Source of the DNA: Minutocellus sp. GHC0000111
Taxonomy: Eukaryota
Length of the DNA stretch: 64,000 nt
Assembly: GCA_977018835.1 (NCBI GenBank)
Contig: OZ361261.1
Coordinates: forward strand, 1 to 64,000
Reading direction: 5' to 3'
Position numbers and translations under genes: made by a program. The notes under the pieces were generated by a model, which was not told the origin of the DNA, made no database searches, and saw only the letters and a list, made by a program, of their open reading frames with translations. This document shows, piece after piece, positions 11,211 through 54,595 of the stretch (its first letter is position 1; the number at the start of each line of letters is the position of its first letter).

Positions 11211-11221
11211 AAATTTCACAT

Positions 11222-11640: not shown

Positions 11641-11695
11641 TGTTGTGCAGATGGATGTTGTGCAGATGAATGTTGTGCAGATGAATGTTGTGCAG
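11641..11695. repeat. 15-bp minisatellite (tgttgtgcagatgaa) x~3.7
   Basis: Directly visible tandem units. Confidence 0.9.
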
Positions 11696-11852
11696 TTCGT
11701 CCCAGTTGGTTCGCAGTTTCATGCACATTGCGCAGTCGGGTCTTTTTGCGCTTCAGGGGGAGGGGCTGTAATGCCCCTTATTTAAACCCCCGTATGGCGA
11801 TTGCCCCAATTCGCTCAAAAGATACTCGAGATTGCATTCATCTTACCTGACC

Positions 11853-31393: not shown

Positions 31394-32944
31394 ATGGAAC
31401 TCGATCCCATCCCCGCCAGCGCCCTCGGTGGGCTGACTTCGACGACCGCCCCGGGCAAGACCTTCGCCACCCGGTCCGATCTGGTGGCCCACTACAAATC
31501 CGACTGGCATCGCTATAATCTCAAGCGTCGGGAGGCCGGCCTGCCCATGCTGCGCGAATCCGACTTCCAGGCCCGATTGGAGGCCGCCCTGGCACTGCGG
31601 AAGGAGCGGGAGCAGAGGGAGGAGCGCAGCGGGACGGGGCATTTGAAGGGTGGCAAGAATAAGGGGAAGAAGGATAAGGGCAAGGATAAGAAGAATCAGA
31701 AGGGAGGCAAGAAGGAGCGGAGGGAGGCCAAGCACTCTGCCGCGCGGACCATGGCCGTCGAGGTGGAGGATACCAGCGACGACGACAACGATGATAGCAG
31801 CGAAGCCGAGCAGGCACAGCAGCAGGAGCAAGATGGCTGCAAGATGGACGAAGATCCGCAAGAGACTTCTACAACCGGAGGTGGCGGAGAGGACCCAACC
31901 CCCGCCATCGACCCGTGCCAGTCCCTCTTCGACAACACCCTCCACCGCAGCCCCGAGGCCTCCCTGTCGTACATGTCGCAAAAGTACGGATTCTTCCTCC
32001 CCGACATGGAGTACTGCATCGACCTCGAGGGTCTGCTGGGCTACTGCCAGGAAAAAGTCAAGCTGGGACACTACTGCCTCTACTGCCAGCGCATCTACAA
32101 GACGTGGAGCGGCTGTCAGAAGCACATGATCGACGCCAGCCATTGCAAGCTCAAGTACGAACGGGGGGTCGACCAGGAGGAGTTCGATGTGTTTTATGAC
32201 TTTAGCGAGGCCAATGCCGAGTTTTTGGGCAGCGGCAAGGGTGGTAGTGCAAAGGAGGATGCCGAGGAGGGAGAGGTCGTGTACGAAGACGACATGGACG
32301 ACGAGGATGGCGAGTGGGAGGATATCTCTGACGATGAGATGGGCGATGACGACGACGACGACGACATGGAAGGTGCAGAGGATGACTACCAGGAGTACGA
32401 GGCCGAGCTCAAGACGCACGGCTTCGACATCACCCCGCTGGGCGAGCTCATCTTCCCCGACGGGCGGATCATCGGCCACCGGGGACTGTCGAGGTACTAC
32501 AAGCAGCGCTTCGCCCCCGACGGGGAGCGGGCTGCCGTGACGGCCGCCCGTCGAGCGGCCGGAGAGCGGGTGTATGCCGGCCGGGTCCATCAGATTGGCG
32601 GCCCTGCCGCTGCTGCCACCGGCGGTGGCGACAACAGCCGAGAGACCACCCTCGCCCTGGCCAAGGCCGGTCTGGTGGCCGGTGCCGCCGCCGGCAGGTC
32701 CGGCAGGGGCATCCTCGTCCCCACCTCGGGCACGTCCGGTCCGTCGGGCGGTGGTGGCGCCGCCGGTGCTGGTAGCTTCACGGCCCTGTCGCTCTACCGG
32801 TACAAGGCGGCCGTGAAGAAGTCCAGGAGGGAGGAGGCCAAGGGCCACCGTCTGCAGCAGAGGACCAAGATGAACATCAACCGGATGGACAAGAAGGCCA
32901 ACCGCTTGATGAACGGAGTGTCGGTTGCCCATGCCGCGAGGTAG
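31394..32944 (+). CDS. REI1: Cytoplasmic pre-60S maturation factor REI1/ZNF622
   Basis: HYKSDWHRYNLKR, YGFFLPD.EYC.DLEGLLGY, CLYC...HM...HCK and IGHR.L.RYYKQ motifs. Confidence 0.93.
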   Translation: MELDPIPASALGGLTSTTAPGKTFATRSDLVAHYKSDWHRYNLKRREAGLPMLRESDFQARLEAALALRKEREQREERSGTGHLKGGKNKGKKDKGKDKKNQKGGKKERREAKHSAARTMAVEVEDTSDDDNDDSSEAEQAQQQEQDGCKMDEDPQETSTTGGGGEDPTPAIDPCQSLFDNTLHRSPEASLSYMSQKYGFFLPDMEYCIDLEGLLGYCQEKVKLGHYCLYCQRIYKTWSGCQKHMIDASHCKLKYERGVDQEEFDVFYDFSEANAEFLGSGKGGSAKEDAEEGEVVYEDDMDDEDGEWEDISDDEMGDDDDDDDMEGAEDDYQEYEAELKTHGFDITPLGELIFPDGRIIGHRGLSRYYKQRFAPDGERAAVTAARRAAGERVYAGRVHQIGGPAAAATGGGDNSRETTLALAKAGLVAGAAAGRSGRGILVPTSGTSGPSGGGGAAGAGSFTALSLYRYKAAVKKSRREEAKGHRLQQRTKMNINRMDKKANRLMNGVSVAHAAR

Positions 32945-33122: not shown

Positions 33123-33890
33123 TTACATCTTGCCGTAGGTCGGTGGTCGCCTCCTTGTTGCTGCGGATCTTTCCGGGCGTACATTCGTCGACCAGGAAAA
33201 TGGCGAAGAAGGAGAAAGTTGGTACCGATATGATTTCCTTGCTTGGCGGAGATGAGTTTTGGGGCTCATCAAATTCGGGCAGCTTGCCGATGAGCCTTCT
33301 TGTTGTGGACGAGGGAAGTGTTGTCGAGGTTGTCGAGGAGGTACCAACTCCTCTTCCAAGTTCTTGGTGATGTTTTGCAGGATTAATTGAGAATCAGCAC
33401 GGAAACGCCCCACCTCAGCTCGTTCGTATTCGATGCCACGTGCCCTTGCACGATCTGTGGCATCCTTTGATAGCATCCGCGACATTTGAGCGAGTTCGTC
33501 TTCGTTGACTATGCGCCGGCCGTGCGCATCCCTCTGTTGCTTGTGGACAATTGAATTCAAGAGGAGATGGCGACCGCGCTTTTGCTGCGTTGAACCGGAC
33601 GGACTCAAAAGGTGCTCAATGCCTCGAAAGGTTGTGCCTTCCTTGTCGTCGAAAAACGATAGCCTCCTTCTCGTCTGATTTCTCATCTTGATCGTGGCGT
33701 CGGCAACCTCATCTTCGTTCTGTTCGATATCCCTCTGTGAGATCCAAGTTCGCCGGATCTCCTTCTGTGTCAGGTCTTTTCGCGATGGGATAAACGCTAC
33801 ACGATCGATCGTGCTGAAGCGGACTCCACGGCGACGCGGTTGGGCGGGATCGCTGGGATTGGAGCGATCGTGGCGACAGGAGATATTCAT
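33123..33890 (-). CDS. Uncharacterised family protein, paralog 3
   Basis: GVRFSTIDRV...FRGIEHLL...DRARARGIEYERAE. The ORF-track extension to 33956 runs into the transposon TIR. Confidence 0.8.
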   Translation of the reverse strand: MNISCRHDRSNPSDPAQPRRRGVRFSTIDRVAFIPSRKDLTQKEIRRTWISQRDIEQNEDEVADATIKMRNQTRRRLSFFDDKEGTTFRGIEHLLSPSGSTQQKRGRHLLLNSIVHKQQRDAHGRRIVNEDELAQMSRMLSKDATDRARARGIEYERAEVGRFRADSQLILQNITKNLEEELVPPRQPRQHFPRPQQEGSSASCPNLMSPKTHLRQARKSYRYQLSPSSPFSWSTNVRPERSAATRRRPPTYGKM

Positions 33891-33991
33891 TCTGCTGCGC
33901 AGCTGAGTCTTCGTTTCTCGGTGTTCAACTTTAGGTACAGTGGTTTTCCAAAACACTCCACATAGGCGTACTTACACTCGCGCCACCCGCT

Positions 33992-34808
33992 CCCAGCTCT
34001 GAGTTTTTGCCAAACGGACCGCCAAGCGCCGGGAGTACCGTTCTCGACGATTTGTGGGCCGAATTGCTTCATTCTTTCAACTAAACGTCTCTGTTGGACC
34101 ATACGGTGGTGGCTGACCCCTTGGTCCGGTCGCCGTAGCCCTTCTACACGTATTTTACGACCCCACTGCCCCCCGGAGTGGACCCCGTCGGTACCACCCG
34201 CTGAGTTTGAGGTGAGTGGCCGGCCGAATAAGTCCTCGGATCTACCGCTGCGGCATGGGGATGTTGTCTATGGGTATATTCCCGGTGTCTCCTGCGGCGG
34301 TCCGGGCGGAATCGGCCGAGAACTCATCACGGACGGTCCAATCCTGAGTTCGCGTTTTTCCACCCATTTTTCGGCCCTCACCCACCCTCCTTCCCAATGC
34401 CCCTACCATATCCCCCACAGATCGCCGTCGGCCGTCTCCACCCCCTCAAGTCCTCTCGTTGGTGCTATAGTTTGGCTCTGAGAACGGTGAGTTGGGTCCC
34501 GAGGCGGTATACGTTCGTAATCGTCGGCATGGCATGTCCGACACGTGATTTTTACCCCCCTTTTTGACCCCTCCCCGGAGGTCGGACCTGGCGGCGGAGG
34601 GCATAATGGGTCCGCCGGTGGTGCTGCTACCGGCAGCAGCCTCCCTTGGGGTGTTGGTGGGCGTGTGGATGCCCGCGGGGCGGCCGACGGGCCCGTATTC
34701 TGCTCCCAAACCGGGTCGGACGGCATGGGGATTTTTGTGGGAATTTCGGGACTACATCTCACCTCTTCCTTCTATTGTCCATTTGCTCCGTGTTGGAAGG
34801 GATATCAT
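33992..34808 (+). repeat. Left long TIR of inner element (817 bp)
   Basis: Reverse complement of 38702-39519; by eye about 9 substitutions and one C-run indel. Confidence 0.95.
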
Positions 34809-34931
34809 CGCTCGGACGAACATCATAAGTCCATTCTAATACTATGTGATCCGTCATTGGCATTCATTTGACTGGGTTGGTTGGCTTTGTTTGGTTGGAG
34901 TTGCATTTCTGACAACAAATTGCAATAGAGG

Positions 34932-36233
34932 ATGCGTTTCAATGTCCTTGCCCTTGGGCTGACGATGATCGCCGGGTATGTTCTACCGGTAGGAGCGTCG
35001 GTCCTTAATTCAAGGTTTTTCCAGCAGAGAGTCATTGATTATGTAATCGATTGTATGGGCGATGAGATCTACGACGTTTCTTTCATTTCTGGGAGGAGGA
35101 CTCGAACCAGATTCCATCCCTGTACGAGAGAGGCAAGTTACAAGATTATGCCGCAGGCTGACGTTAGCAATCTGAAGACCTGGGTGAAACACTATGTTCT
35201 CCACGGAGAACTCAAGGTTGACACTATTGAGCGACTGAGGATACTCAAGGCCAAGTTCCCCGAGGAGTTTCGCGATGTTGGTCGTCGAGGGGATTGGAAT
35301 GCCCATGACACTGACACCCTCAAGAGGATCGTGGACGAGAATCCCGATGCATACCTTGATGAGATCCAAAAGGAGATGGTGTTCGCCGGTCGGAAATGTT
35401 ACAGTCTGAGCTACATCTGGAAGCAGCTGACTGGAAATACCATTCGATACTCACTCAAGCGAGCTATCGAAATTGCTGCAGAGCGCGATGAAGAGGAACG
35501 ACGGCGTTATCTTGAATCTCGGGAGATCGGATTACCTCGGCCCGAGATGGCGATCTTCATCGACGAGACGTACAAGGGCCAGAACGATGGCAGGAGGAAG
35601 AGGAGGTGGGGTAGAAAGGGGAAGAAGGCCACGTACCGTCGCCCCCTCACCTTCACTGGCTCTCACGACCGTCGGTACTCTCTTCTTGCTGCTGCCGACA
35701 TCAATGGTTTTGTAATTGAGGCCTGTGAACAAGTCTTTGCCAAGACGAGTGCTACCGATACTGACCCAACCCGAGGTACCATCGATGCCGAGCGATTCGA
35801 GCTATGGGTGGAGGAGTTTCTTTGCCCTACGCTGGGTAACTATGATCTCGAAGAGCCTAGATCCCTTGTCATCCTTGACAATGCTAGCACCCATCACACC
35901 GCTCGTGTTAGGGAGCTTATTCGAGCCACAGGCGCTGAGGTTTTGTACACCGCCCCCTACAGCCCCGATCTCAATCCTGTTGAGGAGATGTTTTCCAAGT
36001 ACAAGGCGATGCTTCGACGGCATCAACACCTGCCCCTTGAGGATGCCCACATGGTGGCCCTTCTCAGCGTAACTCCTTCGGATGCACGGGGGTACTACCG
36101 TAATGCCAAGGTGCCAGGCAGTGAGATGGAGGAAGAGGTCGAGGAAGCTGCGGCCGCCTTTATTTCTCAATCAAATGCTGTCTTTGCTTCCTTGGGGGCT
36201 GCATTGGGGGCGGCCCATCTTGGGTCTTATTAA
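34932..36233 (+). CDS. IS630/Tc1-family DD34E transposase
   Basis: HTH-like PDAYLDEIQ; IFIDET (D1), ILDNASTH (D2), YSPDLNPVE (E, 34 residues after D2). Confidence 0.95.
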   Translation: MRFNVLALGLTMIAGYVLPVGASVLNSRFFQQRVIDYVIDCMGDEIYDVSFISGRRTRTRFHPCTREASYKIMPQADVSNLKTWVKHYVLHGELKVDTIERLRILKAKFPEEFRDVGRRGDWNAHDTDTLKRIVDENPDAYLDEIQKEMVFAGRKCYSLSYIWKQLTGNTIRYSLKRAIEIAAERDEEERRRYLESREIGLPRPEMAIFIDETYKGQNDGRRKRRWGRKGKKATYRRPLTFTGSHDRRYSLLAAADINGFVIEACEQVFAKTSATDTDPTRGTIDAERFELWVEEFLCPTLGNYDLEEPRSLVILDNASTHHTARVRELIRATGAEVLYTAPYSPDLNPVEEMFSKYKAMLRRHQHLPLEDAHMVALLSVTPSDARGYYRNAKVPGSEMEEEVEEAAAAFISQSNAVFASLGAALGAAHLGSY

Positions 36234-36413
36234 TGCATAATTTACTAGACATAGGAATTCCTAATATATATCTAAGTCTAAGTGTGTTTATAGATATAAT
36301 GCATGTGTATGTGTGTATACATCTAAGTCTAGGAATCATTCCTAAGTCTAATGCATGTTAATATAATGTAAAATATGTATTATCGGCATGCAGATGCTCA
36401 AGTTCTAAAGTCT

Positions 36414-38703
36414 CTAAAAGAGATCGGCCACAACGGTTCCAACTGGCTTTTCTTTGATGCTAACCTCGATACTAATGTCGCTGCTGCCAACAATGCGAAG
36501 AGAACCCACTGTGCAGTCATCTTGACGCAGCTCATCCGCTGTTTTTGTTAGCACCAATCCATCAGCTGCACTCCCCTGTTTCCGATCACAGATTGAATAC
36601 GAAAGAAAATGCGTAGCGGAGTCGCCCCTCACCTTGCTCACGTCATCGTCGGAAAGTCTGAAGACGTCGGCGTTCGGATTTCTGTTCTTCAACCGACTCA
36701 TGACAGATGACATCTTTTCGTTCTCATCTTCTGCGGGCGTTGCAATCGATGCCCCATTCCAAGCGCAAGAGAGGGACACCCGCTGCTTTGCGGCCCCACC
36801 AAGCATTGCATTGGCAATTCCAATTAGGCCCCTTTCGTTGCTTTTACCACTTTCGGCAATAGCAGAAGCCATAGCTTTGCTTCCATCCTGCGCTCTGGCA
36901 CCAGAACCACCCTCTCCCTCTACAGACAAAGGCTTCCCATCATCCCCGATAGGATACTCGCCTTTCTCGGGCTTCTTGCCGCCCACTCTGTGGCTAATGA
37001 GCGGCTCATCCCAGTACGTCTCATCAATGAGTTGGTCTATGGAAGGCGGCCAGGTGTCACTTTCGCCGTCAACGAAGGTATACTTCTCATAGACGGGTTT
37101 GCCAATCGCATTCTTGAGCTTGATACTGGCCATTTTAAACATATTGGGGGAAAGGCTCATGTAGAGGCTGCTACTTTCCTGAGAAAGGGGCAAAAAATAT
37201 TGCATAGAGTCAAGAGAATGACGTGGTGAGGATGAGTGCAGCACATGAGGAGGGCATGGCATCAACAACAAAAAGAATCGCATTGGGACTTACGATGCTA
37301 ATTGCTTTCAACAACCAGGCATTCACCATTGCCATCTTCGATTGCGACGAAACCAAATTATCCTGAGACTCTTCTCGTTCTGCTCTATTGGAGGAATGAC
37401 GCTTTGCGACAGGAGAATCAAGGAGGCCCGCACCGGTGTCAACTCCCTGGCTATGCGCAAGAACCTCATCATTGTCGACATCAGGGTCTGGTACGTTTGC
37501 ATCGTCTTCGCCGTTCCCGAATGCCACAGCATCAGGCTTTTTCTCTCCAAAGCTGACGAGCAGAGAAACCTCGTTGTCGGTATTTTTCTTGCGATACTTA
37601 TCAAACAAAGCAAGAGACTCCCCGGAAGAAGTCTCAGGGACGGTGACCATGCCATGGCCCACACCAGTCTGTTTGACATAGAGCCTCGACGATGGGCCGA
37701 GCTTGCCATCATACGCTGTTTGCGTCATTGCTTTGGCAAGAATAGCTGCACGAATCATTCCAATGTTGGCATTAGGAGGCGGTATGGAGAAAGCAACGAT
37801 GCTGTCCGAGCTCTCCACTCTCGGTTTTGGTACGTCAGTGGGTGAGGACCTTTTGGGCTTCTGCTTCCTCGTTGGTTCCAGCAGCGTAATATTGAACGTG
37901 CAGTCCCCGGTGCGCACCCTCGAATTGACAGTAGAGGTAGCAGCACTACTGGCAGCCGAACGCCGAACGCTCTTCATCTTCTTCTTCGATATGATAATAT
38001 CAATAACAATTCGGTCGACCTCGCCCGTTTCCAAACCAACCTTGAATGAGTTCTCAAGGATTATGGATTTCATACTTGTGTCATCATAAACAGGGATAAA
38101 TAGATTGTCCGAGATTCCACTTTTCGAACCTTGTCTGGGGCTGACAATGTCCTCCAGAGTGGAGGGATACCTGGACGAGGGGCGAACGTATATGGCCGAT
38201 CCACTTGCATCTTCCGCCAACTCAATATCCATAGTTCGACATTCGTCACTGAGGAACGATTCCACACAATCCTTGAGCTCTAATCCAGAATCGTCCGAGG
38301 ATACTTCTCGCAACTCATACTCTTTGCCCCTGAAATAATTCATCGACGGAACTACCTTCCTTGCATCGGACGGATTGACCAAAAAACATCTGGCAAATAT
38401 CGGGGCCTTCATGATTAAATCGAGCAAGACCTGATTGATCATGGTGGTGTCCTTAATGACTTGAGGATTGCCTTCCTCATCATCACTGCTGTCCCCGTCA
38501 TCGGCCTTCTTCTTCTTTGCCTTCTTCTTGCTATTCTTACCAGAGCTGCCCTTCTTCTTGGCTGCCGACTTCGTTAGCTTAGCAAAACTGCTGTCGGAGT
38601 CCGAAGCGACCTCTTCCACGACCTCCTCTTCCTCTGACGACGGATCGCCACACATGGATTTCCTTTTTTGAGAACGTGATGATTTTCTAAGATTGGACGA
38701 CAT
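36414..38703 (-). CDS. Transposon accessory protein of unknown function (~724 aa; phase-0 intron 37179-37293)
   Basis: ATG at 38703. Donor gtaagt and polypyrimidine-cag acceptor join ORFs 37210-38946 and 36414-37283 in frame (KAISI-ESSSLY). Lys-rich NLS-like N-terminus. Confidence 0.8.
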
Positions 38704-39519
38704 GATATCCCTTCCAACACGGAGCAAATGGACAATAGAAGGAAGAGGTGAGATGTAGTCCCGAAATTCCCACAAAAATCTCCATGCCGTCCGACCCGGG
38801 TTGGGAGCAGAATACGGGCCCGTCGGCCGCCCCGCGGGCTTCCACACGCCCACCAACACCCCAAGGGAGGCTGCTGCCGGTAGCAGCACCACCGGCGGAC
38901 CCATTATGCCCTCCGCCGCCAGGTCCGACCTCCGGGGAGGGGTCAAAAAGGGGGGTAAAATTCACGTGTCGGACATGCCATGCCGACGATTACGAACGCA
39001 TGCCGCCTCGGGACCCAACTCACCGTTCTCAGAGCCAAACTATAGCACCAACGAGAGGACTTGAGGGGGTGGAGACGGCCGACGGCGATCTGTGGGGGAT
39101 ATGGTAGGGGCATTGGGAAGGAGGGTGGGTGAGGGCCGAAAAATGGGTGGAAAAACGCGAACTCAGGATTGGACCGTCCGTGATGAGTTCTCGGCCGATT
39201 CCGCCCGGACCGCCGCAGGAGACACCGGGAATATACCCATAGACAACATCCCCATGCCGCAGCGGTAGATCCGAGGACTTATTCGGCCGGCCACTCACCT
39301 CAAACTCAGCGGGTGGTACCGACGGGGTCCACTCCGGGGGGGCAGTGGGGTCGTAAAATACGTGTAGAAGGGCTACGGCGACCGGACCAAGGGGTCAGCC
39401 ACCACCGCATGGTCCAACAGAGACGTTTAGTTGAAAGAATGAAGCAATTTGGCCCACAAATCGTCGAGAACGGTACTCCAGGCGCTTGGCGGTCCGTTTG
39501 GCAAAAACTCAGAGCTGGG
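38702..39519 (-). repeat. Right long TIR of inner element (818 bp)
   Basis: Mirror of 33992-34808. Confidence 0.95.
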
Positions 39520-40230
39520 ACACAGCCCCATCTCGTCTCGCCGGTCGGATGAAGCGTTTTTCGGCAGAAGACGAACACGTCACGAAGAAACCCACCAAAA
39601 CCCAATCTCGTTCGTCACCCATTCTTTGACCGTCCAACACCATGGTGGTCCGTCGGCGTTGCGCCGGCGTATAACTATGTTTTCGCACCAAACACGCATT
39701 CATTATCATGTTTGGATGTAGTTGAAGCTTACTGTATCCTCAGATTGGCCTCCGCTGCGTATCAACGCCACGAACCATCGGCCTACTTTTCCTCCATCTG
39801 TCGGCCGTTCGTTTCTCTGGGGTGGCGCCATTGCTCCGTCTTTGTGCTCGTCGTGCTCCCGTTGTGATGCCCCAGACCCTCTGGTACTTTCCCACGTTGT
39901 TGTTGATGATAAACTGCCGGGATTGCGCCGCACCCCCCGCATGACCGACTCTCGCTGATCCCGACCGATCGCATCCCCACTCGACCTCTCCCGGAACTCC
40001 GACAACAATTTTGCGCCCGAGGAGAGACAGACAGCATTGGGATAAGTTTATGCAACAATCAACCCGACAAAGGGACTTTTTGGTCTGGGAGATAAATGGG
40101 TGAGTTAAGAAGGACGTGATGTGTTTGTTTTGGTGTGCTATTTACTTTTTTGCTCAATCGCGACACTGTTTGTAAAAGTTGGATCACGCAATTCATTTGT
40201 CATTGTGTAGCAGCAGTGCAATTTCATTTT

Positions 40231-41826
40231 CTAATTTTGTGCATGCCCTGCTCCCATCTCTACATCCTCATCTCCATCGGTGGCCATCTTGATCATTTGT
40301 TGGCGCTTGTCATCAGTTTCTGCTTTAACAGCTTCGGTCCTTTTCCTTGTTCTTGCCACCCGGGAGTTTCGCTCCCGCCTCTCCTCGACCTTTGGATTGG
40401 ATGCCCTCTCCTCAGCCTTGAACTGCGCCGTCTGTTGGGCCTCATGTCCCTTGACGCCCTGAGTCCGACGATCTTCCTTAACGCCCTCTTGGTGGGCTCG
40501 CTCTACAAACGATTCGTCGAGCCAATGGATGCTGCCCCATCCATTCTTCACTAGCCAAATGTGTTGGTCCAAGATGTGATCTTCGAGTAAGTGCCACTTG
40601 GGCGTTGTGCTAACAATGCCGATTGCCCGTGCTTGCTTGAGGGCACTTGCAATCAATGCTTCAAGCTCTCTCACAGCCTTCTTTGCCTCATCATCCCATT
40701 TCATGTGCCATTTCAGAAACCTGGAACATGTTGCGTCAAGAGTGTGGAGCAAATTAGAGCAAGCTTTGCAGAGCTCTTTGATGTCGTCGTCATCCGTCAT
40801 ACCATCTTCCTCGCGATTGTGCTCTAGGAGAGTTCCTTTGGTGGAGGTGTTGTGGTGGATGAACTCTGTTGTCTTTGGTTTCTTCTTGTTGTTGCCATCA
40901 GAAATGTTAATAGATAAAGCTCTCCAGCACTCTGCCAGCACTGCCCTTATTTTACCTGAGTCGGCCGCCTCAATGCCGGCCTTTTTCAGGAAATGGAAGT
41001 GAGGGGCATCGTCATCCTCGGCATCATCGACAGCTCCCATCTCTGGCTCGCCATCACCGTGCTTCTGACGATTCTTCTCAAAGCACTGCTGCATGCACAT
41101 GCTTGCTTCATGTGCAGCGTCCTCTCTTGCAACATCAGCTTCGTCCTCATGACAGGGCACATGGTCCTCGTCTTCGTCGTCATCGTCCTCACTGATCTCG
41201 CCGGCCTCCGTCGTGGTCAGGGTGCCCACCGTCCCAACATCGTCGTCATTGTCCCACCCATCGTCCTGGCCATTGTGCCCACCCCAGGGAACTTCTGGGG
41301 GGGCCTCGAGCAACATCTGCCTGTTGATTTCGTAGTCCATCGCCGCATGTCCCACCGACACATGTGGTGCGACCGACTTGAGGAATGCGTTGCATGCCTT
41401 CGTCAAATTGAGCCGCGGCGGCGGCATTTCGAGGCGAAATTGTTGCTCGACCGTGACCATGTCGAAAGCCATCCATCCATCCATCATCATGGAGAGCGTC
41501 GGCTGCACGAGGATTGATAGAACCGATTCGAACAAATGTGCTCTTTTGCATGGGGTTCGCTGAACGTCGTCGGCAAGGCAGTGTCTTGACACCATTTCAT
41601 CCCATCCATTCTGGTTGTCTGTCCTCCTCACAAAAAACACATCGCAGTCTTCGTGTTTCTTCTTCTTCAAACCCAAGATGCCCGCAGTGCACATGACGGC
41701 GCCGTACATGATGGGACTGCATCCCAACACATTCATCAAGGAGTCGTTGTTGTTGCCGATGAAATTGTAGTGATGAAGTTCCTTTCTGCGAAGACGGACG
41801 AGCAGTTCAGCCAGGGTGTCCTGCAC
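40231..41826 (-). pseudogene. Degenerate, probably internally deleted transposase with Transib/RAG1/Chapaev-like C-terminus
   Basis: TPKWHLLEDH...GSIHWLDESFVERAHQ motif; lies within the outer TIRs; only 3 Tyr in 531 aa; N-terminal catalytic Asp motifs not recognisable. Confidence 0.65.
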
Positions 41827-42572
41827 CGCAACTCTGTGTCTGCGGTGTTGACCGCGGGATTGCGGCCGTTATTTTTTTGCTCATGGAGAATTATGGATCG
41901 AGACCAACAAGAATGTCACCAGGATGTCGGGAGTGCCTGGTTGGTCTCGTGCCGCAGTTCTCCCACACCAGCGCGAGATGTCGCCTTCGTTCTGCACGCA
42001 GCGGCGGCAATTTGAATTGTTGCCGCCATGGTGGCTCATGTTGGGCGCGCCGGTCGGTTGCTTCGCGCGCCGGCCGGCCACCGAAAGTGCGACCAAAAGC
42101 ATGCGAGTCATCCGGCTGGCAGATGGTGCTGTGGGTAGCGGGTGGCGCGAGTGTAAGTACGCCTATGTGGAGTGTTTTGGAAAACTGCTGTGCTTGTGAT
42201 TTTGCATGCTTGTGTCAACGAATTAGAAGATAAGTGACATTCACAGTGCACTTTCACACCGGCCCATCAACCCCAACAAAGCGGTTCGGTTGATCACCGT
42301 GCATCATTCTTTTCGCTTCGTGCTTTTGCCGCACCTTTTCGACAGCAGCCTGTGCGAACCGTTTAGTTTACGTTTAGCGTTTTGGCGCTGCTGCTGCGGG
42401 TGCGAACCCAAAACCCAAAGTGAGCATGGTCTGTCCGTCGTGTGCAACAAGGCACGGCGAAGTGCCGCCCAGTTTCGCCGTTCCACAGGATGACGATCGT
42501 ACCAGCAGGAATTCTACATCATAATTCCTGCCGAACAGACTTCCACTGTATCGCCGCAGTGAAGTTTAATAA

Positions 42573-43910
42573 ATGCACCCTTTGGTATCAGTGAGAGGTG
42601 GCCTGCTGCTTCGAGCCACGCCCCTTTTCTCCCTTGCATCGTCTGCCTTGGTCTCCGCATCCCGATCAGCCGTCACTTCGACTCATTCATTGGCCTTTAG
42701 AACGAGCACGTGTAGCTTTCATCGCTACCAGACAACTGACACCGAAACAACTCTTGCCAGCGTTCACAACATGGATTCATCTGCGTACTGGAATCGCGAA
42801 AACTCCAAGCACGGAGAAGGCAATGTCGGCGAGATAATCAAGGAAGCCAAGATTATTTGCCCGTGCAAACGTGCAACTGTGCAAACGTGCAACGAAGCAT
42901 TGTACGAGGGAGGTGACAATCTGCCCGAGGGGTCGTCGGTTCTGGCCGTCGGAGCAACGCTAGATGACTTTGACCTGGCGGCGTTGAAAGAAGCGCAGCC
43001 GAACGTGGTGTTTGTGAGCCATCCCAAGGCCCGCGGACCTCTCCCTGACCTCCTAGAGGCGTTGCCCACGGTGGACTGGGTTCATGTGCGCAGTGCCGGT
43101 ATCGATGCCTTCTCATCCGATAAGCTTTCACACATCACGGCCCAGAACAACGTCACGGTCACCAACGCCAAGGGATGCTTCTCCAGTACCCTTGCCGAGT
43201 ATACTATGATGGCATGCTCTTATTTCGCAAAAGATCTCCCATTACTACTCAAGAATAAAAAGGCAAAGGATTGGCATCGCTATAACGTCTTGGAGCTTCG
43301 AGGGGCCACGATGGGCATAATCGGATATGGCGACATTGGCAGAGCCTGTGCCAAGTTGGCTGATTGTTATGGAATAGAGGGGCTGGCCCTCCGGCGCGAC
43401 ACTACCAAAAGCAAGGACGATCCCTACGTCAAGGAATGCATGGGTCTGGATCGGCTGAATGAACTCATGGCCAAAAGTGACTACATCTTGGTGGCCGCCC
43501 CGCTCACGGAAGATACGAGAGGGCTGGTGAGTGCCGAGGCCATATCGCATTCAAAGAAAGATGCAGTCATCATCAATGTCGGCCGAGGCCCCATTATTGA
43601 CGAAGATGCTATGATCGAAGCTTTAGGCGACGGAACGTTGAAGGGGGCAGGGTTGGACGTCACGACTATTGAACCACTCCCGAAGGAAAGTCCGCTCTGG
43701 GAGCTCGACAATGTCTTGCTCAGTCCACACAATATGGACGCAACTGCTCATTTTTGTAAGGAGGCATGTGAGATGATGGTGTACGAGAATCTCCCGAGAT
43801 ATGTGCGCGGAAAGGCACTGTTAAATCCTGTGAACGTAAAGGCTGGATATTACGGCGCCTTAAGAGAAGAAGTGATTAAGAGAAGAAGTGATTATTCGTT
43901 TTCATTGTAA
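42573..43910 (+). CDS. D-isomer-specific 2-hydroxyacid dehydrogenase
   Basis: GIIGYGDIG, INVGRG, LDVT..EPLP..SPLW and LLSPH motifs; organellar presequence. Confidence 0.93.
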   Translation: MHPLVSVRGGLLLRATPLFSLASSALVSASRSAVTSTHSLAFRTSTCSFHRYQTTDTETTLASVHNMDSSAYWNRENSKHGEGNVGEIIKEAKIICPCKRATVQTCNEALYEGGDNLPEGSSVLAVGATLDDFDLAALKEAQPNVVFVSHPKARGPLPDLLEALPTVDWVHVRSAGIDAFSSDKLSHITAQNNVTVTNAKGCFSSTLAEYTMMACSYFAKDLPLLLKNKKAKDWHRYNVLELRGATMGIIGYGDIGRACAKLADCYGIEGLALRRDTTKSKDDPYVKECMGLDRLNELMAKSDYILVAAPLTEDTRGLVSAEAISHSKKDAVIINVGRGPIIDEDAMIEALGDGTLKGAGLDVTTIEPLPKESPLWELDNVLLSPHNMDATAHFCKEACEMMVYENLPRYVRGKALLNPVNVKAGYYGALREEVIKRRSDYSFSL

Positions 43911-43996
43911 ATATCTACCCCTTTCCCTTCTTCACTCGCTATCGGCAAGTCGCTAGTCGATGATCCAGGTTTGGCCGTATCTGGTGACAACTTTTT

Positions 43997-45472
43997 TTAT
44001 GGCTCCCCTTTCATCTTTGATCCTAACCAATCGCAACAATTCGAAAGCAATTTCATAATTCGCGGTCGAAAGTAGATCATGCAGGTAAAGAATCCCTGAA
44101 GTGGCCACAGAAATGAAGCAGCGGAATCAACTTTGTATGCGACAGACAACGGGTCCTCGTATCGATCCGGCTTGATCAGAAGTGAAGTCAGAACCACCGG
44201 CCATGTAATGTAAAAAGAGAGAACATATAGTGCAGACTGCCAAAATACCTTCCTTTCTCGTTCCGTCATTGACATTGTTGTATTTCCCGAACCGTTTGCA
44301 TCGAGTTTCCGGCGAGAAAATCGCCATTTCAGCATCTTTTGTTCTGATTGCCTCACAAAATAAAATATCCTGGCTTGCATAAGAGTGATGGCGGCAATTG
44401 CGACACATATGGGGACAACTCCGATCAAGATCGAATACAGTGGCGTAAATCCAAATAAACCTGTGATAAAGATGGACGGCAACCAACATACATGCCCTAA
44501 TGCCACATAGGCTGGAATGCCAGCACAAGCCAGTACAAGCCCCAACGCAAACGGAATTGCCAAGAGATAGACCCGAACTCTTCGTATCCGGCTCTCATTC
44601 CATCCCTGTGCGATAGTGAGCATGTAGTAGAGCGTCAGAGACGTGTTGAAGAACATCGCCGCGAAACCAAGCTGGAGAAAGAATCCCTGGGCTTTGCAAA
44701 ACGATTCATCACCGCCGGGTGTTGTCGGGGCCGGGATGTCCGCCAAGATGAAAAATATGCTGGACATGAAATCGCAAGACGAGATTCCCAAAATAATCTG
44801 ATGATAAAGGCTCGTTCGTTTCCTTCTATCTCTCAAGATATGAGTAATAAGAGTCAGAGAGCAAATCAAGGATATCGACCCAGAAATTCGGCTCAGCAGA
44901 ATCCACAAGTCCACATTGAAATCAAAGTACGTGCATCCGCAGTAGTAGGAGAAGACTCGCTGGGCCATGCATTGTGTCGAACCATCCTCGAATATGCCCT
45001 GCAAAAGTAGGTCCCAACCCTGGCATGTCGGTACAACCCCAGAGTACCAGTTTTGGATGAAGGGTACAGGTTTAGTTAACAGGGTTTCGCTAATGCTTTG
45101 TCCGTCGGCACAAAGATGGCAGCCACTCCGCTCGTCTTGTGGTGGAGTGCAGCCACATATTGTCGAAACCCGCCTGATTATGGTGCAATCGCCCGAGGTT
45201 TCGTTGTGTGCGGCAATCGCCACGTCTGCCTCCCAGTCGGCGCAAGTGGCGCCGACGCCAAGGGTCGGTTCTAGAAAGGGGACGGACGTGCCCAAGAAAG
45301 ATGGCTGCACGGGATTTCCATCTGCACAAAGTGTGCATATGTTGCCGACATTCGCATCCTCGGGCACATCCTCGGCCGTCACACCAAGAACATTGACGTT
45401 GAGAAAGATGACGGACCAGAGAATGAAAAGGCGCCCGAACACTGGAGTTATCGGTCTGGATCTTGCCTTCAT
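43997..45472 (-). CDS. G-protein-coupled receptor (cAMP-receptor-like) with Cys-rich extracellular repeats
   Basis: Signal peptide; two C.LCADG...C repeats; seven hydrophobic helices with CKAQGFF.Q and PLQGFF motifs. Confidence 0.85.
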   Translation of the reverse strand: MKARSRPITPVFGRLFILWSVIFLNVNVLGVTAEDVPEDANVGNICTLCADGNPVQPSFLGTSVPFLEPTLGVGATCADWEADVAIAAHNETSGDCTIIRRVSTICGCTPPQDERSGCHLCADGQSISETLLTKPVPFIQNWYSGVVPTCQGWDLLLQGIFEDGSTQCMAQRVFSYYCGCTYFDFNVDLWILLSRISGSISLICSLTLITHILRDRRKRTSLYHQIILGISSCDFMSSIFFILADIPAPTTPGGDESFCKAQGFFLQLGFAAMFFNTSLTLYYMLTIAQGWNESRIRRVRVYLLAIPFALGLVLACAGIPAYVALGHVCWLPSIFITGLFGFTPLYSILIGVVPICVAIAAITLMQARIFYFVRQSEQKMLKWRFSRRKLDANGSGNTTMSMTERERKVFWQSALYVLSFYITWPVVLTSLLIKPDRYEDPLSVAYKVDSAASFLWPLQGFFTCMIYFRPRIMKLLSNCCDWLGSKMKGEP

Positions 45473-45846
45473 TTTGAATGCGATGTGCCGCACGAGCTGC
45501 TTGGCGAGTTCAGTACGTGGATCTGTTCATACATGTATCGTTCTTCACGCATCTTTCTTGCTGCTACTATCTTCTTCGATTTTTCACTCTTGTTTTCGGC
45601 TTGACTTTGACTGGTATCTTCAACGTGCTAACCGATGTCCTCATCAAATAAATAGTCATCAGAGCGCGGCGCGCGCGCGGCGGCCCGCCCCAGGGGGGGG
45701 GGGGGGGGTTGCATGCTGCAAAGCGAAGTGCAGCAGCGAAGGTGCAGTGCAATACTAGTACAATACCTTGGTATAATGGGCGTATTCCATGCACAACCTG
45801 ATAGCCCCATGCGTCGCCTCGGCATCATCTAAACAGTAAGGCGACC

Positions 45847-47538
45847 ATGCCGGCCCCAGCCCTTCTGATCGGCGGGCCGGCGGTGGCGTCCGCGGCAGCT
45901 GCGGCATCGGCCGCGGCACCGTACGTCATGTACAAGCTCTCGTCGTCGGCACTTGCGGCGGTACTGGCTCGGAATCTGTGGAAAAGTCTGCCGGCGTGGA
46001 TGCGGGACGACCCGGCCTTGGCCAAGCGCGGCTCGTTGCTTCGGGGTGGCGGTGCCGGCAATGATTATGATGGCACAACTGGTGCCGCCGACCCCGACGA
46101 GACGGAGGAGATGGCCTCTTTGTCAGACGTTATCGCCAGATTGGACAACATGATAACGTCGGCGGGCAAGACCATCGGGACCAAGCTAAAACCTTCGCAG
46201 ATACATGCGGCAATCCTGGCATATGTGCAGCTATCGAACCAAATGCGTGTACACTGCCCCGAGGCGAGGGATCGGCTCTACGAGAAGTGCGCCTTCCATC
46301 GGGATGATGATGCTGATTCACCATCCCCACACATTACCAAGGACGAACTGCGAGAGTTGAGACAGAGCTTGGACTTTGCCACTTGGTCGTATGTGGACTA
46401 CTACGGTCCCGACGACGTGCGCGCCAAGCTGGAATCGGTCGATGGTGACTACTACCTGCACTCGCATAGCACGCACGAAGAGAATGTTCCCGGCAAGGTT
46501 CGATACTTCCTCGCATTGTCGCCTGAACGGAAGGAGATTGTTATTGGAGTAAAGGGAACGTCGTCGTTGGAAGATTTGGTCACGGATGCCGCTGGGACTT
46601 CGACTCCCTTTGACATGATGCATGCTGACAGTGCTGGTGGAGGCAAAAACAATTCATCAGCTACTGAAGATGGACATTGCGAACGCATGAGCATTGAAGT
46701 TGCGGTCGACCAAGAGACCATCGTGGTTGATTCTACTCGTGATGTGAATTGTAGCACGGTATCTGTTGATTGTTTGGACGCACCAACTGAGACGGGCGAG
46801 GCCATTGAAGTTGAGTTGCGCGTTGAGAAGGAGAGCATCATGATTTTACCCGATGGATCGATTTTGCGCTGTCACGAGGGTGTATTGCTTTCCGCCCGCA
46901 GGCTGCTCGGCGATGTTCGTGAGGTCGTTGAGACACTTGGTGTAAAATCTAGCTACTCTGTGAGAATAGTTGGACATAGCCTGGGAGGGGGAGTTGCTAT
47001 ACTTCTTGGTATCCTCCTTCGTTCCAAATTTCCAAGTCTGGCTGAAAGGAATGCCATCCGTGTCCATGCCTTTGCTCCTCACCCGGTGCTAGATATCGAC
47101 GGTGCCACTGGATGTGAGTTCTTTGTCACTTCCGTCATCAACAATTCTGATATTATACCGCGGGGCAGCATAAATGACAAGTTGGGGGCGATGGGGATGG
47201 GACTCGGTGGGCCAAAACGAGCGGCTGCTTTATTGCGAAAATTGAGCCAGGGCACCGGAGGTGAAATGATCATGACTTGGCAAGAAGTCCGAGATCTCAT
47301 TGAAGAAAGCCATCGCAAAGTCGACCTTCGAGATGCCCAGCATTTGTACGTTGGTGGAAGGGTCCTTCTCATCTTTGACTCTTGGAGCACAGACCAGACG
47401 ACAAGGAGTGTTCTAACGCATGGAACTGCAGCGCCACTCCGTCTATTTGAAGTCGATGCACTCAAAATGTTTGCAGATCACTTGACAACATCACATGAGG
47501 CTCGCTTGGATCATTTGGTTGAAACGACGAGGGTCTGA
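45847..47538 (+). CDS. Class 3 lipase (DAG-lipase-like)
   Basis: VKGTSSLEDLVTD, CHEG, VGHSLGGG, DIIPR and C-terminal DH motifs. Confidence 0.9.
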   Translation: MPAPALLIGGPAVASAAAAASAAAPYVMYKLSSSALAAVLARNLWKSLPAWMRDDPALAKRGSLLRGGGAGNDYDGTTGAADPDETEEMASLSDVIARLDNMITSAGKTIGTKLKPSQIHAAILAYVQLSNQMRVHCPEARDRLYEKCAFHRDDDADSPSPHITKDELRELRQSLDFATWSYVDYYGPDDVRAKLESVDGDYYLHSHSTHEENVPGKVRYFLALSPERKEIVIGVKGTSSLEDLVTDAAGTSTPFDMMHADSAGGGKNNSSATEDGHCERMSIEVAVDQETIVVDSTRDVNCSTVSVDCLDAPTETGEAIEVELRVEKESIMILPDGSILRCHEGVLLSARRLLGDVREVVETLGVKSSYSVRIVGHSLGGGVAILLGILLRSKFPSLAERNAIRVHAFAPHPVLDIDGATGCEFFVTSVINNSDIIPRGSINDKLGAMGMGLGGPKRAAALLRKLSQGTGGEMIMTWQEVRDLIEESHRKVDLRDAQHLYVGGRVLLIFDSWSTDQTTRSVLTHGTAAPLRLFEVDALKMFADHLTTSHEARLDHLVETTRV

Positions 47539-47859
47539 AATACATGTACGTACGGTGGAGTGAGTACGTAGGATTTTTGTGTCTGTGCGCCGACCGTCAA
47601 TATTTTCTTAATGACATCATTGTTCGATGGAGTTCGAGAGTTCGGTTCCCTCCGGTGAAGGTTCGCATCAAGACGAGTTCTTGTTGCCACGATCTGTCTT
47701 GAATTTGGCGGAGTATTGCCGCGGCTCTTTTTGTGCGGTCGTCTCATTATTCAACAACTCAGTACGATACGAAGCCAACGACACGACCACTTATAAACAT
47801 TATACAATCCATCAACGAAAATCCCTCGAGGCATAACGACGAACACTGGCAATATGAGG

Positions 47860-50800
47860 GAGAGCATTCTACTTTAGCTCGGAATTTCGATTTCAATTTG
47901 GGCGAACTACTCAAGACGCACTACTTGACGCCGCTGTTCGATCCGAGCAGGTGAGATATCAGCATATTCTTTTTCGATTGGATTTTGTTGCACTTGCAAT
48001 GAGTGAAGGAGGTGTCTCATGTGCAAGGATTGGTTGGGTTGTTTGGCTCGCTCGGTGTGCTGCATTCGCTTACAACTCATTTCATGTTGCTAATTGACAT
48101 ACTTGCTGTCTTTTGATATCAACAGCATCGCCATATTTGGCGCCAGCGAGCGCGAGAACTCGGTCGGCGAGGTGGTCTTTCGAAACTTGCTCGCTGCTGG
48201 ATTTGGCGGCGGGATCTATCCAATCAACCCGAAGCGCGACACAATTCAAGGCCAAAAGGCATACAAAAGCATCGGTGATGTCGCCGATAACATTGATTTG
48301 GCCGTCGTTATTACGCCCGCTCCTACCATTCCAGCCATCGTTCAGGAATGTGGCGAGCATGGGGTCAAGACGATGATCATCATATCGGCGGGATTCCGCG
48401 AGGCTGGAAGTGAAGGACGCAAACTCGAAGACGAGGTGGTTCGCATTGCCAAAGATTTTGGAATATGGTTCATTGGGCCCAATTGCCTTGGTCTGATCCG
48501 CCCACGTGAGGGGATTAATCTCACTTTTGGCAATAACAATGCAAGCCCCGGAAATCTCGCTCTAGTGTCGCAATCAGGTGCGATATGCACTGCCATTCTC
48601 GATTGGGCCGAAGAGAACGACGTGGGGTTCTCCACCGTAATTTCTACGGGCATTGCCGCCGACCTTGATTTCGGTGACTACCTCGACTTTTTGGTGTCTG
48701 ACCCTCAGACAGATAGTATTCTGCTCTACATCGAGGGCATTCAAGATGCAAGAAAATTCATGACTGGACTCAAGGCCGCTGCAAGGATCAAACCCGTCAT
48801 CGTCCTCAAGGTCGGCCGTCACGATGCTGGAGCCGCTGCAAGTATGAGCCATACAGGTGCCCTTGTCGGCTCTGACGCAACCTTCTCCGCGGCCCTATCT
48901 CGTTCGGGAGTCATCCGTGTCGAGTCAGTCTCGGAAATGTTCAGTGCGGCAAACTGCTTGTCATCGCGATATCGCCCTTCCCCTGCGATGAGCTTCGATT
49001 CGAAGAAGATTTCTCCCATGTCCAGCATGGCGATCCCCGAGATGACCCCAATAACTTCTGGGTTACCAGCCCCTTCATCGTTCGACCCAAGTACGTACAA
49101 CGGACGATTGACCATCATCACAAACGGTGGTGGGCCTGGCGTAATGGCTGCTGACAAGGCCACCGACTTGGGCATAGACCTTGCCCAGTTCTCCGAAAAG
49201 ACCTACGCAGCTCTCAACGAAGTGCTTCCCAGTGTTTGGTCCCACGGCAATCCCGTCGATGTAATCGGCGAGGCTCCGCCATCGAGATACCGTGATGCCA
49301 TCGACATCTGTCTGCGAGACCCCGGCGTCGATGGAGCTGTGGTGATCCTCACTCCTCAAGCTATGACGAACCCGGAAGGTGTTGCAGAAGCCGTTGTAGA
49401 ACTAGCCTCTCAGCACACAAAGCCGATCATAACTTCTTGGATGGGCGGCACACAGGTGGAAAGTGGAAGAGCCCTTTTCAAGCGCGCCAAGATCCCAACG
49501 TGTAGAACTCTTGAGAGCGCAGTAGAGGCATTCGGATTCATCGCAACCTACCACAAGAACCAGAAGCTGCTTCTTCAGACGCCAGCTCAATCCTCACGAG
49601 CCCACGACCCTCCAGACATTGAAGGAGCACGTATGATCATCGAGTCTGCTCTCTCCAAGAAGAGAACCGTCCTCACCGAGCCCGAGGCTTACGGCGTCTT
49701 GGGCGCGTTCCTTATCCCTTCCGTAAGGTCTGGCGTCGCAAGGTCTCCATCCGAAGCCTTGATCGTCGCTTCGAGCATTGGTCTCAGTCAAACGCGACCA
49801 ATCGCAATGAAAATTTTGAGCGATGACATATCTCACAAGTCCGACGCCGGTGGGGTTCGTTTGAATATCACCAGTGCTCAGTCCGTGCGTAGCACTTATC
49901 GAGAGCTCAATGATGCTGTCAGGCACGCATGCCCCGAGGCGAATATTGAGGGGGTCGTCGTGGAGGAAATGTATAAATCCTCGAGTGGCCGAGAACTTCT
50001 CATCGGCCTCAGCAATGATAATGTCTTTGGTCCAATCATCACGTTCGGCTCGGGTGGAACCGCCGTCGAGGTTGTCAAGGATTCTGCCCTTGCCTTACCT
50101 CCTCTCAACCGGCATCTTGCTTCCGATTTCATCGATAGGACAAAAGTCGGATCGAAGATGCTCGGTGAATTCCGAAACATGCCACCAGCCAACCGTGAAG
50201 CAATCATCGACGTCCTCCTTCGTATTTCATCTCTGGCATGTGAGCTCCCACACATCCAAGAGATGGACATCAATCCTCTCATTGTCGACGAGAGTGGCGC
50301 TGTGGCTGTTGACGCCCGGATCCGGGTTGCATACCCAAAACCGAGCCACACGCCCTACGCTCATCTGGCCATTCATCCCTATCCTTCCAATCTTTGCAAG
50401 CAATCTCAGCTCCCCAACGGTATGAGTATCACCATTCGTCCAATCCGTCCTGAAGACGTCGACCTCGAGAAATCCTTTGTCCGGCAGCTGTCTGAGGAAT
50501 CTATCCGGCAGCTTCGTCTCACCCCGGAAATGCTCACCAGGCTCACGCAGATAGACTACGATTTGGAATTGTCGCTGATCGCAGTTGCGCAAGTTGAGGG
50601 CTCCGAGGAAGAGGAGCTAGGATTGGCGCGATACGTTGCGAATCCTGACAAGCGCAGCTGTGAATTCCTTCTCGTCGTGAGTGATAAATGGCGAGGACAG
50701 GGTCTGGGACATGCTCTCTTGACCTCTCTTAGCGATGCAGCCCGAGCTCGTGGCTACGAGGTCATGAATGGTGAGGTCCTCGCAAACAATTTCAAGATGC

Positions 50801-50925
50801 TCAAGCTCCTCGAATCATTGGGCTTTCAGATAGAAGACATAGAGGATGAGGACGACATCAAGCTCGCCCAGCTTCGGCTTGCTGGAAAGCGATCGAGATT
50901 GACGGATGGAAGGCGCAGCTTTTAG
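47860..50925 (+). CDS. Bacterial-type acyl-CoA synthetase (NDP-forming)-GNAT fusion, Pat/PatZ-like (intron 47951-48125; start uncertain)
   Basis: Spliced HYLTPLFDPS-SIAIFGAS; GPNCLG, SQSGA, SHTGAL, TNGGGPG, NPVD, ATP-grasp HKSDAGGV and GNAT WRGQGLG motifs. Confidence 0.9.
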
Positions 50926-51217
50926 ATTTTAGACACGAGAGGAAGGAATAATGTGGCGTTTCCGTGGAATATTCTACGACTTCGTAGATGGGACTTGGTT
51001 CCACTTACAGAGAGGAATTTTGACTTGCATTTTTCGCTCCTCTCAGCATGTCGTAGGAGACCTGTCCAAGTTAAGAAAGTAGAGATAGATTATAGTACAG
51101 GTATAAATAAGTAGTGTGACCATAGTTCCTAAATCGTGTTTGACATTCATTATTGTTATCATATTGTGCTATTAGAACTCCCGTTGATTTGTAAGCTTAT
51201 GCGGAGCTACTACGTTG

Positions 51218-53197: not shown

Positions 53198-53474
53198 TTT
53201 GTGATTGTTGTTATGAAATCAAATGCACGAAGATATTGCGTAGTATGCGAAAAAAGACAATCCGGGATGGCTGGAGAAGTACACGCAGATGCAGCCAACA
53301 CAAAAATCAACACCAACACGTCGTTTGTGTATATTATGTGCTGGGATCGAGCTGTATCTTGTTCAGGCTACAAAATCTCGAGAATCGAAATTTCACGAAA
53401 TTGTTTCGAGATTATGTGCTGTGAAGGGTTGAAATCGCGAGAAGGGGGTGGCATATGCGATGTACAAGTGAGTA

Positions 53475-54119
53475 AGTGAAAGTTTGTGGTGTGGACTGAT
53501 TGGTGTTGCAGCAGCAGTGCAAACAGATTGGCAGTCATCCGTCCTGCCTGCCGCCAACAAGGCAAGTCCCGTCGAAAAGTGAAAAGAAACCCGGAAACGC
53601 CAACCAGCCGCTTGAACGCTTTCGGCGGTCGGGAACCGGACCTCCGGACCCCTCCTTGCCCTCTGCAAGCCGGGAGGATCGCACCGGCGCTCGGCCCGTC
53701 GGTGCACGAATTTCACCCAATTCCATTGTCCAGGCACAGACAGCCATGACCATGCGCAAGGTCGTGCCGAAATCGAACCGGACTCGACCGCACCGCGTCC
53801 TCTTCCGCACGACAATTTTCCGCTCCGCTGTGCGTTTTTATGCGGTAGGAATCAACGTCATGTCCCAAGGTCGCAAAACGGTACCATCCCGTCGATGAAA
53901 AACCCTCCCAAGCCATGCGCTCTCCGTGAACATACAAACACCCTCCGGGGTTGGACGGTCCGGGAGATGGCCGGTCCCCTTCGGGACGGGCCGGCCATCC
54001 CGGAGCACCATCTTGGCCTCACCTTTCGTGCTGTTTTTTGCCGCGTCGGTTTTTTGGGTTGGGCTCGGACAGCTGGAGGAGCGGTTGAGGTCACTCGAGC
54101 TGCCTCAGCCAGCTTGCAA
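53475..54119. other. GC-rich, TpA-depleted non-coding block (possible TE relic) with hairpin
   Basis: No TpA in 53475-53838 or 53941-54119; inverted repeat at ~53960-54004. Confidence 0.45.
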
Positions 54120-54595
54120 TATTGTAAGGTCATTGGTATTATCGTTAACAAGAAGAAAGGGGGGAAAGAAGGGGAAGAATCGATCACCATCCCCTGAATG
54201 CCAGATCGACCGAAACCGGCCGCAAATAAATGCTCTTCCGCCAAAAGAACACATCACATGCGAACACTCCGATTGATGCCAAACCTGTCAGGCAATTGAC
54301 CTCGTTGCGGCACCACTTACACCCAATACCACCACAAATTGGCGATAAGAGTACTCGGAAAGGTATCTGACCCATCGGTGTCATCCTTGTCCGATCAGAA
54401 TTCGCTACAATCCTCTTTCGCGACACAAATCGCGTCAATCGCAAGTGCCGAAACGAATCTTCCGCTGTATCAGCCTTTGCATTGATTTGTGCCTGCTACT
54501 GCCACTGGCTAGTACAGCCGTCCGCCGTTTGATAGACTACAGCACTCACTTATTGAAATTCGACAAGGTATTGGTATAATCATCATCGATTGATC

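Follow-up and report, generated by a model that had tools for sequence, protein, structure and literature searches.

TpA-to-TpG/CpA mutation in a many-copy RAG1-fold transposon family of the diatom Minutocellus sp.

We analysed a stretch of 64,000 nt from contig OZ361261.1 of the diatom Minutocellus sp. GHC0000111 (the window; all coordinates are positions in it). The window contains two nested DNA transposons, delimited by inverted repeats at 33936–42192 (outer element) and 33991–39520 (inner element). About two thirds of the readable TpA steps in copies of the outer element's family have become TpG or CpA, and the neighbouring genes are untouched. A repeat-restricted TpA→TpG/CpA process acting on both strands of this transposon family is almost certainly at work. 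Such a process had been proposed in an initial annotation of the window and was upheld by outgroup-polarised protein columns, contig variants and unique-DNA controls.

TpA loss in the outer transposon family

The outer element (33936–42192, minus strand) is a RAG1-fold (Transib/RAGL-like) DNA transposon copy with an internal deletion, as judged from its 58-nt terminal inverted repeats (TIRs), the fold of a family member and contig depth. Its transposase open frame (40231–41868, minus strand; 545 codons) retains the N- and C-terminal parts and has lost about 570 central residues; three tyrosines remain. Full-length family members (1089–1097 residues) include the ~570 central residues missing from the window copy, and their frames are still open. 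Sequence searches of Pfam and the PDB returned no Pfam family and no RAG match for the outer transposase, only coiled-coil noise. A structural model of a full-length member (P0071; mean pLDDT 72), compared by Foldseek, matched mouse RAG1 (E = 4e-13), amphioxus BbRAGL (3e-9) and HzTransib (4e-5). The contig depth ratio to the flank gave a copy number of 93–192, so that the element is present in about 90–190 copies per genome. A search of protein representatives gave the family (P0071, P0074 and P0005) 622 relatives at E ≤ 0.001; no further DNA copies were found in the metagenome contigs scanned.

TpA depletion in the window is limited to the body of the outer element (39521–42133, minus strand), where the observed/expected ratio (o/e) of TpA is 0.30 and falls to 0.05 in the lowest 500-nt bin. 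CA (1.42) and TG (1.29) are raised and CG (0.94) is near 1. The rest of the window has a TpA o/e of 0.58–0.60. The TpA counts of the initial annotation were exact, with 20 in 40261–41880 (o/e 0.23) and five in 40955–41880 (o/e 0.11); no 926-nt segment outside the outer element fell below 0.30 (n = 595; Poisson p = 3e-7 to 5e-7 against the window background).

The direction of the change was read from an alignment of 75 protein pieces; the family's clusters have ~197 members, of which no more than 15 per cluster were listed, and we assume the pieces to come from the host genome. The pieces were projected onto one near-intact copy, frame-shifted stretches were masked, and nine outgroup proteins, 55–70% identical, provided polarity. 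Tyrosine was the outgroup residue in 16 columns, two of which were excluded because all copies carry Phe. The remaining 14 columns contained His 239 times, Cys 190, Tyr 126, Ser 2 and Arg 1. A single step from TAY gives TGY (Cys) or CAY (His), while a CG ancestor would give Arg; the near absence of Arg therefore excludes a CG ancestor. Isoleucine columns showed the matching Met/Thr and cross-codon Val pattern. In the 17 columns with outgroup Cys or His, the reverse change to Tyr occurred once, against 708 kept residues. As polarised by these outgroups, TA is the ancestral and TG/CA the derived state of the family. The test set by the initial annotation, whether TG/CA might be ancestral, thus left its proposal standing, and with it the statement that the direction is opposite to that of fungal repeat-induced point mutation (RIP).

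Both strands are affected. In 20 three-state columns we counted 306 A>G changes (coding strand), 336 T>C, 276 ancestral states and 25 others, and at the 20 in-codon TA sites 545 of 847 residues were changed (64%). The window copy (row P0076 of the alignment) is mutated at 15 of its 17 readable three-state TA sites. No strand-coordinated clusters were detected, same-strand neighbours numbering 277 compared with 285 ± 11 after permutation. The 24 well-covered copies differ from one another at 52% of 19 TA sites, compared with 1.6% of 449 other columns; all 19 of 19 well-covered copies carry distinct patterns. The TG and CA states of different sites are unlinked (r2 = 0.064, permuted 0.063; 72 pieces after removal of three near-duplicates). 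These distinct, unlinked patterns fit many independent hits per copy after a recent burst, and gene conversion between copies could contribute to the lack of linkage. The load per piece ranged from 25 to 100% (65 pieces) and was overdispersed (variance 0.029 vs 0.012; 0 of 2000 permutations). It showed no clear correlation with other changes (rho = 0.18, p = 0.16, n = 61).

The base 3′ of the mutated A influences the outcome. Mean hazards were 1.21 for C (13 strand-sites), 0.90 for T (17), 0.47 for A (4) and 0.10 for G (6), at sites that were partly picked by polymorphism and with flanks taken from the mutated window copy. The preference is TAC/TAT > TAA >> TAG, with a weak effect at AAT. The initial annotation had placed the changes mostly in TAC; this context is preferred, and so is TAT. 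Background classes were counted in columns where the window has the majority state. There, A>G followed A in 31 of 4216 cases (0.74%; at AAT 22 of 813, or 2.7%, at 8 of 18 sites), C in 10 of 3618 (0.28%) and G in 6 of 7872 (0.08%), and transversions amounted to 35 of 65408 (0.05%). Roughly 90-fold more copies are thus changed at TA than at AA (64% vs 0.74%). Ordinary CpG decay is also present in the outer element, at 19 of 82 CpG sites, with C>T in 24 of 3672 cases (0.65%); it is about a hundredfold weaker than the TA change.

Unique DNA, host genes and the nested element

Variants were taken from contigs (not raw reads) of four public runs, representing at most two samples, aligned to 39530–42400. 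The initial annotation had called for confirmation in reads; the contigs of all four runs support the variants, with the same letters at similar shares. In run X17, 46 of 48 variant places in the outer element were transitions, compared with 267 of 431 in the unique, gene-rich control at 42300–58000 (p = 2e-7); transversions made up 4% and 38%, respectively. For the outer element 40 variant rows were shown, with 13 more unshown; dropping one row outside the element and merging six adjacent pairs led to 27 single-letter sites. TA<>TG/CA differences occupied 16 of these 27 sites, compared with 4 of the 40 shown in unique DNA (p = 2e-5), so that the change is commoner in the transposon than in unique DNA, as the initial annotation required. 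The 40 unique-DNA rows shown, of 2068, comprised 4 TA-type differences, 13 CpG-type differences and 11 transversions; the TA-type share of the transitions shown (4 of 29) lies under the 0.20 share of opportunities. As a negative control we used a host REI1-like gene (31394–32941, plus strand), which retains 19 of 19, 18 of 18 and 19 of 19 tyrosines relative to three relatives. The named relatives, ~48–53% identical, are all diatoms (e.g. Conticribra, Cyclotella, Eucampia, Skeletonema), so that the gene also served as a marker placing the host among them.

The inner element (33991–39520) is a younger, IS630/Tc1-like transposon nested in the left end of the outer element, with 820-nt inverted repeats that are 99% alike. 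An intact DDE_3 transposase gene (34932–36233, plus strand; Pfam PF13358, E = 5e-21) lies between its TIRs, the arrangement of the IS630/Tc1/mariner group. Its body (34809–38701) has a normal TpA o/e of 0.63. The transposase retains 18 of the 20 tyrosines of a 96% identical relative, and its 90% cluster has three members including the window's own. TpA is likewise normal in a second coding region (36414–38700, minus strand), which consists of two open frames without a Pfam match. This second gene is probably spliced, and the TIRs that flank it are unusually long (820 nt).

The inner TIRs differ at three TA-type positions (34103/39408, 34508/39002 and 34511/38999). The left TIR (33991–34808) retains TA at all three, and the right TIR (38702–39520), adjacent to the mutated body of the outer element, has TG/CA at 38999, 39002 and 39408. 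The TA-destroying differences listed in the initial annotation are therefore real, yet they account for three of the nine substitutions in 818 nt with 27 TA steps (p = 0.017). All three sit in the right TIR, a small number (n = 3) for the question of homology pairing, and their direction would follow from parsimony. No full TA duplication flanks the inner element: a single T stands on the left (33990–33991) and a single A on the right (39520–39521), which looks like insertion between T and A, or like terminal T...A.

Candidate mechanisms

The explanation that we favour, and consider fairly probable, is a host TadA/ADAT-type adenine deaminase whose targets are silenced repeats that have already inserted, host genes being spared. 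For the deaminase chemistry taken by itself our confidence is slightly lower, only just above even. Hits would fall in each copy after its insertion; adenine would be deaminated to inosine and copied as G; silenced or high-copy chromatin may provide the targeting; and the wrecking of Tyr, Ile and regulatory TA-containing motifs might serve genome defence. An adenine deaminase acting on DNA is preferred because the change is a near-pure transition at one dinucleotide, symmetric between strands and scattered. The initial annotation had proposed a defence system based on adenine deamination or an error-prone polymerase; between these two the data favour a deaminase, while the defence role and the enzyme are what we infer.

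Several observations bear on targeting. The low-copy inner gene is spared, and the inner TIR next to the mutated body has all three changes. In three full-length copies of the outer family, Tyr sites were mutated at 10 of 54 positions in the low-copy middle and at 22 of 42 in the high-copy ends (pooled). With close-outgroup sites only, the counts were 1 of 10 vs 5 of 7 (p = 0.035) and 4 of 10 vs 8 of 13 (p = 0.41). Lower mutation of the middle is no more than suggestive: two of these copies are almost identical, changes are more readily detected in the ends, and selection acting on the catalytic core confounds the comparison. Taken together, the observations on targeting are compatible with youth, copy number and chromatin spreading alike. 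A bolder proposal, which we put forward tentatively and think doubtful as a whole, is a copy-number-sensitive 'reverse RIP' of diatoms. In it, a natural DNA adenine deaminase would be steered to repeats, where it would edit the TAC/TAT steps of all transposon copies to G on either strand; it would share its origin with the process in Bigelowiella across SAR and be the first native genomic-DNA adenine editor in genome defence.

A number of points weigh against a deaminase, or limit how far the data carry. The deaminase is a candidate: no enzyme was identified, no genome-wide deaminase search having been made, and A>G and T>C chemistry look the same in sequence data. AA, as the secondary context, echoes the WA motif of polymerase eta, as far as described in the portion of PMC2213188 consulted. 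A deaminase working on a single-stranded bubble might give same-strand clusters, and none were seen. The measurements cover one multi-copy family, by way of protein pieces, and its unlinked sites could partly stem from gene conversion between copies. The TA load has no clear tie to other changes, so that age and episodic targeting are both compatible with it. Most of the unique-DNA control is coding sequence subject to selection, and 40 of its 2068 variant places were shown. We found no printed source on the 3′ context of TadA; one passage seen describes TadA editors in rice without a clear context preference, and this comparison was not used as support.

Error-prone patch repair is an unlikely competitor to the deaminase. 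Mismatches in methylated repeats, such as T:G from deamination of 5-methylcytosine, would attract an enzyme like polymerase eta, and this enzyme would wrongly incorporate G opposite T at WA sites. The excess of secondary changes at AA, and above all AAT, over CA and GA is in keeping with this, and CpG decay does accompany the TA change. Polymerase eta yields A-to-G at WA and T-to-C at TW according to the sections of PMC2213188 seen, and those of PMC9998398 report methylated transposons in diatoms. The ~90-fold gap between TA and AA, the near absence of transversions and the lack of same-strand tracts nevertheless fit a deaminase better than this polymerase. The polymerase favours TA over AA by a few-fold, and the CpG lesions needed as trigger are about 100 times rarer than the TA change. 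We rate somewhat lower still the idea that the thymine of TpA is modified in repeats, for example oxidised by a TET/JBP-type enzyme, and mispairs with G to give T>C. The outcome in sequence would be identical, and modified thymines mark repeats in other protists, but we know of no thymine-modification pathway with near-pure transitions at such a rate.

The other alternatives have far less in their favour. Mutability of TpA throughout the genome, or GC-biased gene conversion, that shows only under relaxed selection would suit the TpA o/e of ~0.6 across the window and the mostly coding control. It is made very improbable by the TA-type share of unique-DNA transitions, which is below opportunity, and by the abundance of transversions there compared with the outer element; gene conversion also lacks dinucleotide specificity, and non-TA A/T sites in the outer element are nearly untouched. 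Ordinary C→T decay, by CpG methylation or a fungal-type RIP, would make TG/CA or CG ancestral and TA derived or absent. CpG decay is indeed present (0.65% of copies, and 8 of 22 differences in a direct repeat described below), the terminal TG/CA pair of the outer element fits a CG ancestor, and the part of PMC9998398 seen describes a RID-related DNMT4 of unknown function in diatoms. Outgroups nevertheless have Tyr or Ile where the copies have Cys/His or Met/Thr, Arg appears once, the change from Cys/His to Tyr is seen once against 708 kept, and CpG is hardly depleted in the outer body where TpA is. We therefore rejected C→T decay as the source of the outer-element pattern, which the outgroup-polarised columns refute, and give it a negligible probability. 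An assembly or sequencing artefact is more improbable again, with no observation in its favour, as the variant letters recur at similar shares in the contigs of four runs and the changes are family-wide and context-specific.

Related systems and further features of the window

The closest parallel is described for Bigelowiella natans, where integrated DNA of nucleocytoplasmic large DNA viruses (NCLDVs) and of virophages undergoes TpA-specific hypermutation (Mettrop et al., bioRxiv 10.64898/2026.01.13.699255). As given in the accessible text of that preprint, of the 231 de novo mutations seen in two viral inserts, 230 were A>G or T>C changes and lay at TpA, at an ongoing rate ~1000-fold over background and in some lines only; an ADAT2-like enzyme was proposed, without proof. 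The two systems share TpA→TpG/CpA changes on both strands, confinement to foreign or mobile DNA (here one family) and TpA loss with CA and TG gain. The near-exclusive TpA transitions (64% compared with 0.05–0.74% for other classes) match the de novo spectrum there, which we counted in favour of a deaminase. The overdispersed load per copy is compatible with line-restricted activity of the B. natans kind. B. natans is, in contrast, a rhizarian studied in mutation-accumulation lines with a single-copy viral insert, where transposons are implied from Pfam enrichment only. In the diatom, a DNA transposon of 90–190 copies was measured across copies; its mutations prefer certain trinucleotides, and the low-copy element nested in it is spared. 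The parts of the preprint available to us do not mention diatoms, and we found no report of a TpA signature in diatoms in the literature searched, which consisted of listings and the starts of abstracts and left most subscription journals uncovered. The locus extends a process described once to a new lineage and target class and is not a new kind; it adds an unsaturated, many-copy measurement of the signature.

Fungal RIP in ascomycetes is likewise a hypermutation by transitions at particular dinucleotides, through which copies of transposons are disabled and unique genes are left intact, and here too repeats are mutated and unique DNA is spared. In RIP, however, as outlined in the excerpts consulted, C:G becomes T:A, chiefly at CpA, and new TpA arises; RIP depends on RID and is premeiotic, within the sexual cycle. 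The change described here is T:A to C:G and removes TpA. The A:T phase of somatic hypermutation by polymerase eta (PMC2213188, seen in part) resembles our case in A-to-G at WA and T-to-C at TW, and differs in the features weighed above.

If the deaminase explanation is correct, diatoms would have a mutation-based transposon defence with a chemistry opposite to that of fungal RIP. The enzyme behind the Bigelowiella signature would become findable, as diatoms have genetic tools, and a natural genomic-DNA adenine deaminase would be relevant to how DNA editing arose and to the design of base editors. In practice, a majority consensus of diatom transposons will be skewed to the mutated state, and TG/CA enrichment should not be taken as CpG decay. 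Copy ages based on divergence will be inflated, and the loss of TAA and TAG leaves long false open frames in dead elements.

The termini of Transib and RAG-like transposons follow a CAC rule. The left terminus of the outer element (33936–33990), severed from the rest by the nested insertion, starts TACAGTGG; the right terminus (42134–42192) reads CACAGCAG on the minus strand. These ends, set out for comparison with the heptamer of recombination signal sequences, differ between the two sides. That difference (cagTGg and cagCAg) had been traced in the initial annotation to a cagTAg ancestor; the difference is real, but TG and CA could equally come from CG. Nor does the flanking pair of TA (33936) and TG (42191) carry direction, since the TA may be the start of a CAC-type terminus with T standing for C. 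Both pairs were discarded as evidence of direction, being compatible with a non-TA ancestor. The outer element shares with Transib and RAG-like transposons the RAG1 fold of its transposase and a CACAG-like terminus (PMC10629977, as far as seen). It differs in a transposase ~10% identical to RAG1 and in that no 5-bp target duplication was found in this one copy, whose flanks are TTAGG and CTTGT. No RAG2-like gene turned up with the outer element, and none was searched for. The nested pair of elements, 8.2 kb in all, is flanked by two divergent host genes (33126–33935, minus strand, and from 42573, plus strand) and lies tens of bases upstream of the left gene's first Met.

A direct repeat was also said to show the TpA pattern (8198/11222). 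Its first copy (8180–8411) retains TA at four sites where the second (11208–11434) has TG/CA, so that the claim holds for 4 of 22 substitutions, TA always being in the first copy. CpG-type differences (CG<>TG/CA) are more numerous, at eight, and six transversions and four other changes make up the rest. The repeat lies in an AT-richer block (8000–11700; GC 0.42–0.47) that contains, besides the 230-nt direct repeat, a 15-nt tandem repeat (11632–11691) and broken frames. The block is probably another old element, in which TpA is not depleted overall.

Within 42300–58000, contigs of other samples diverge often from the window (431 places in 15.7 kb in run X17), with several larger replacements near 48888–49205 and 53125–53600. 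The gene at 48094–50922 (plus strand) encodes a protein of 943 residues in which an acyl-CoA synthetase (ATP-grasp) is joined to a GNAT domain, an architecture known from bacterial protein acetyltransferases.

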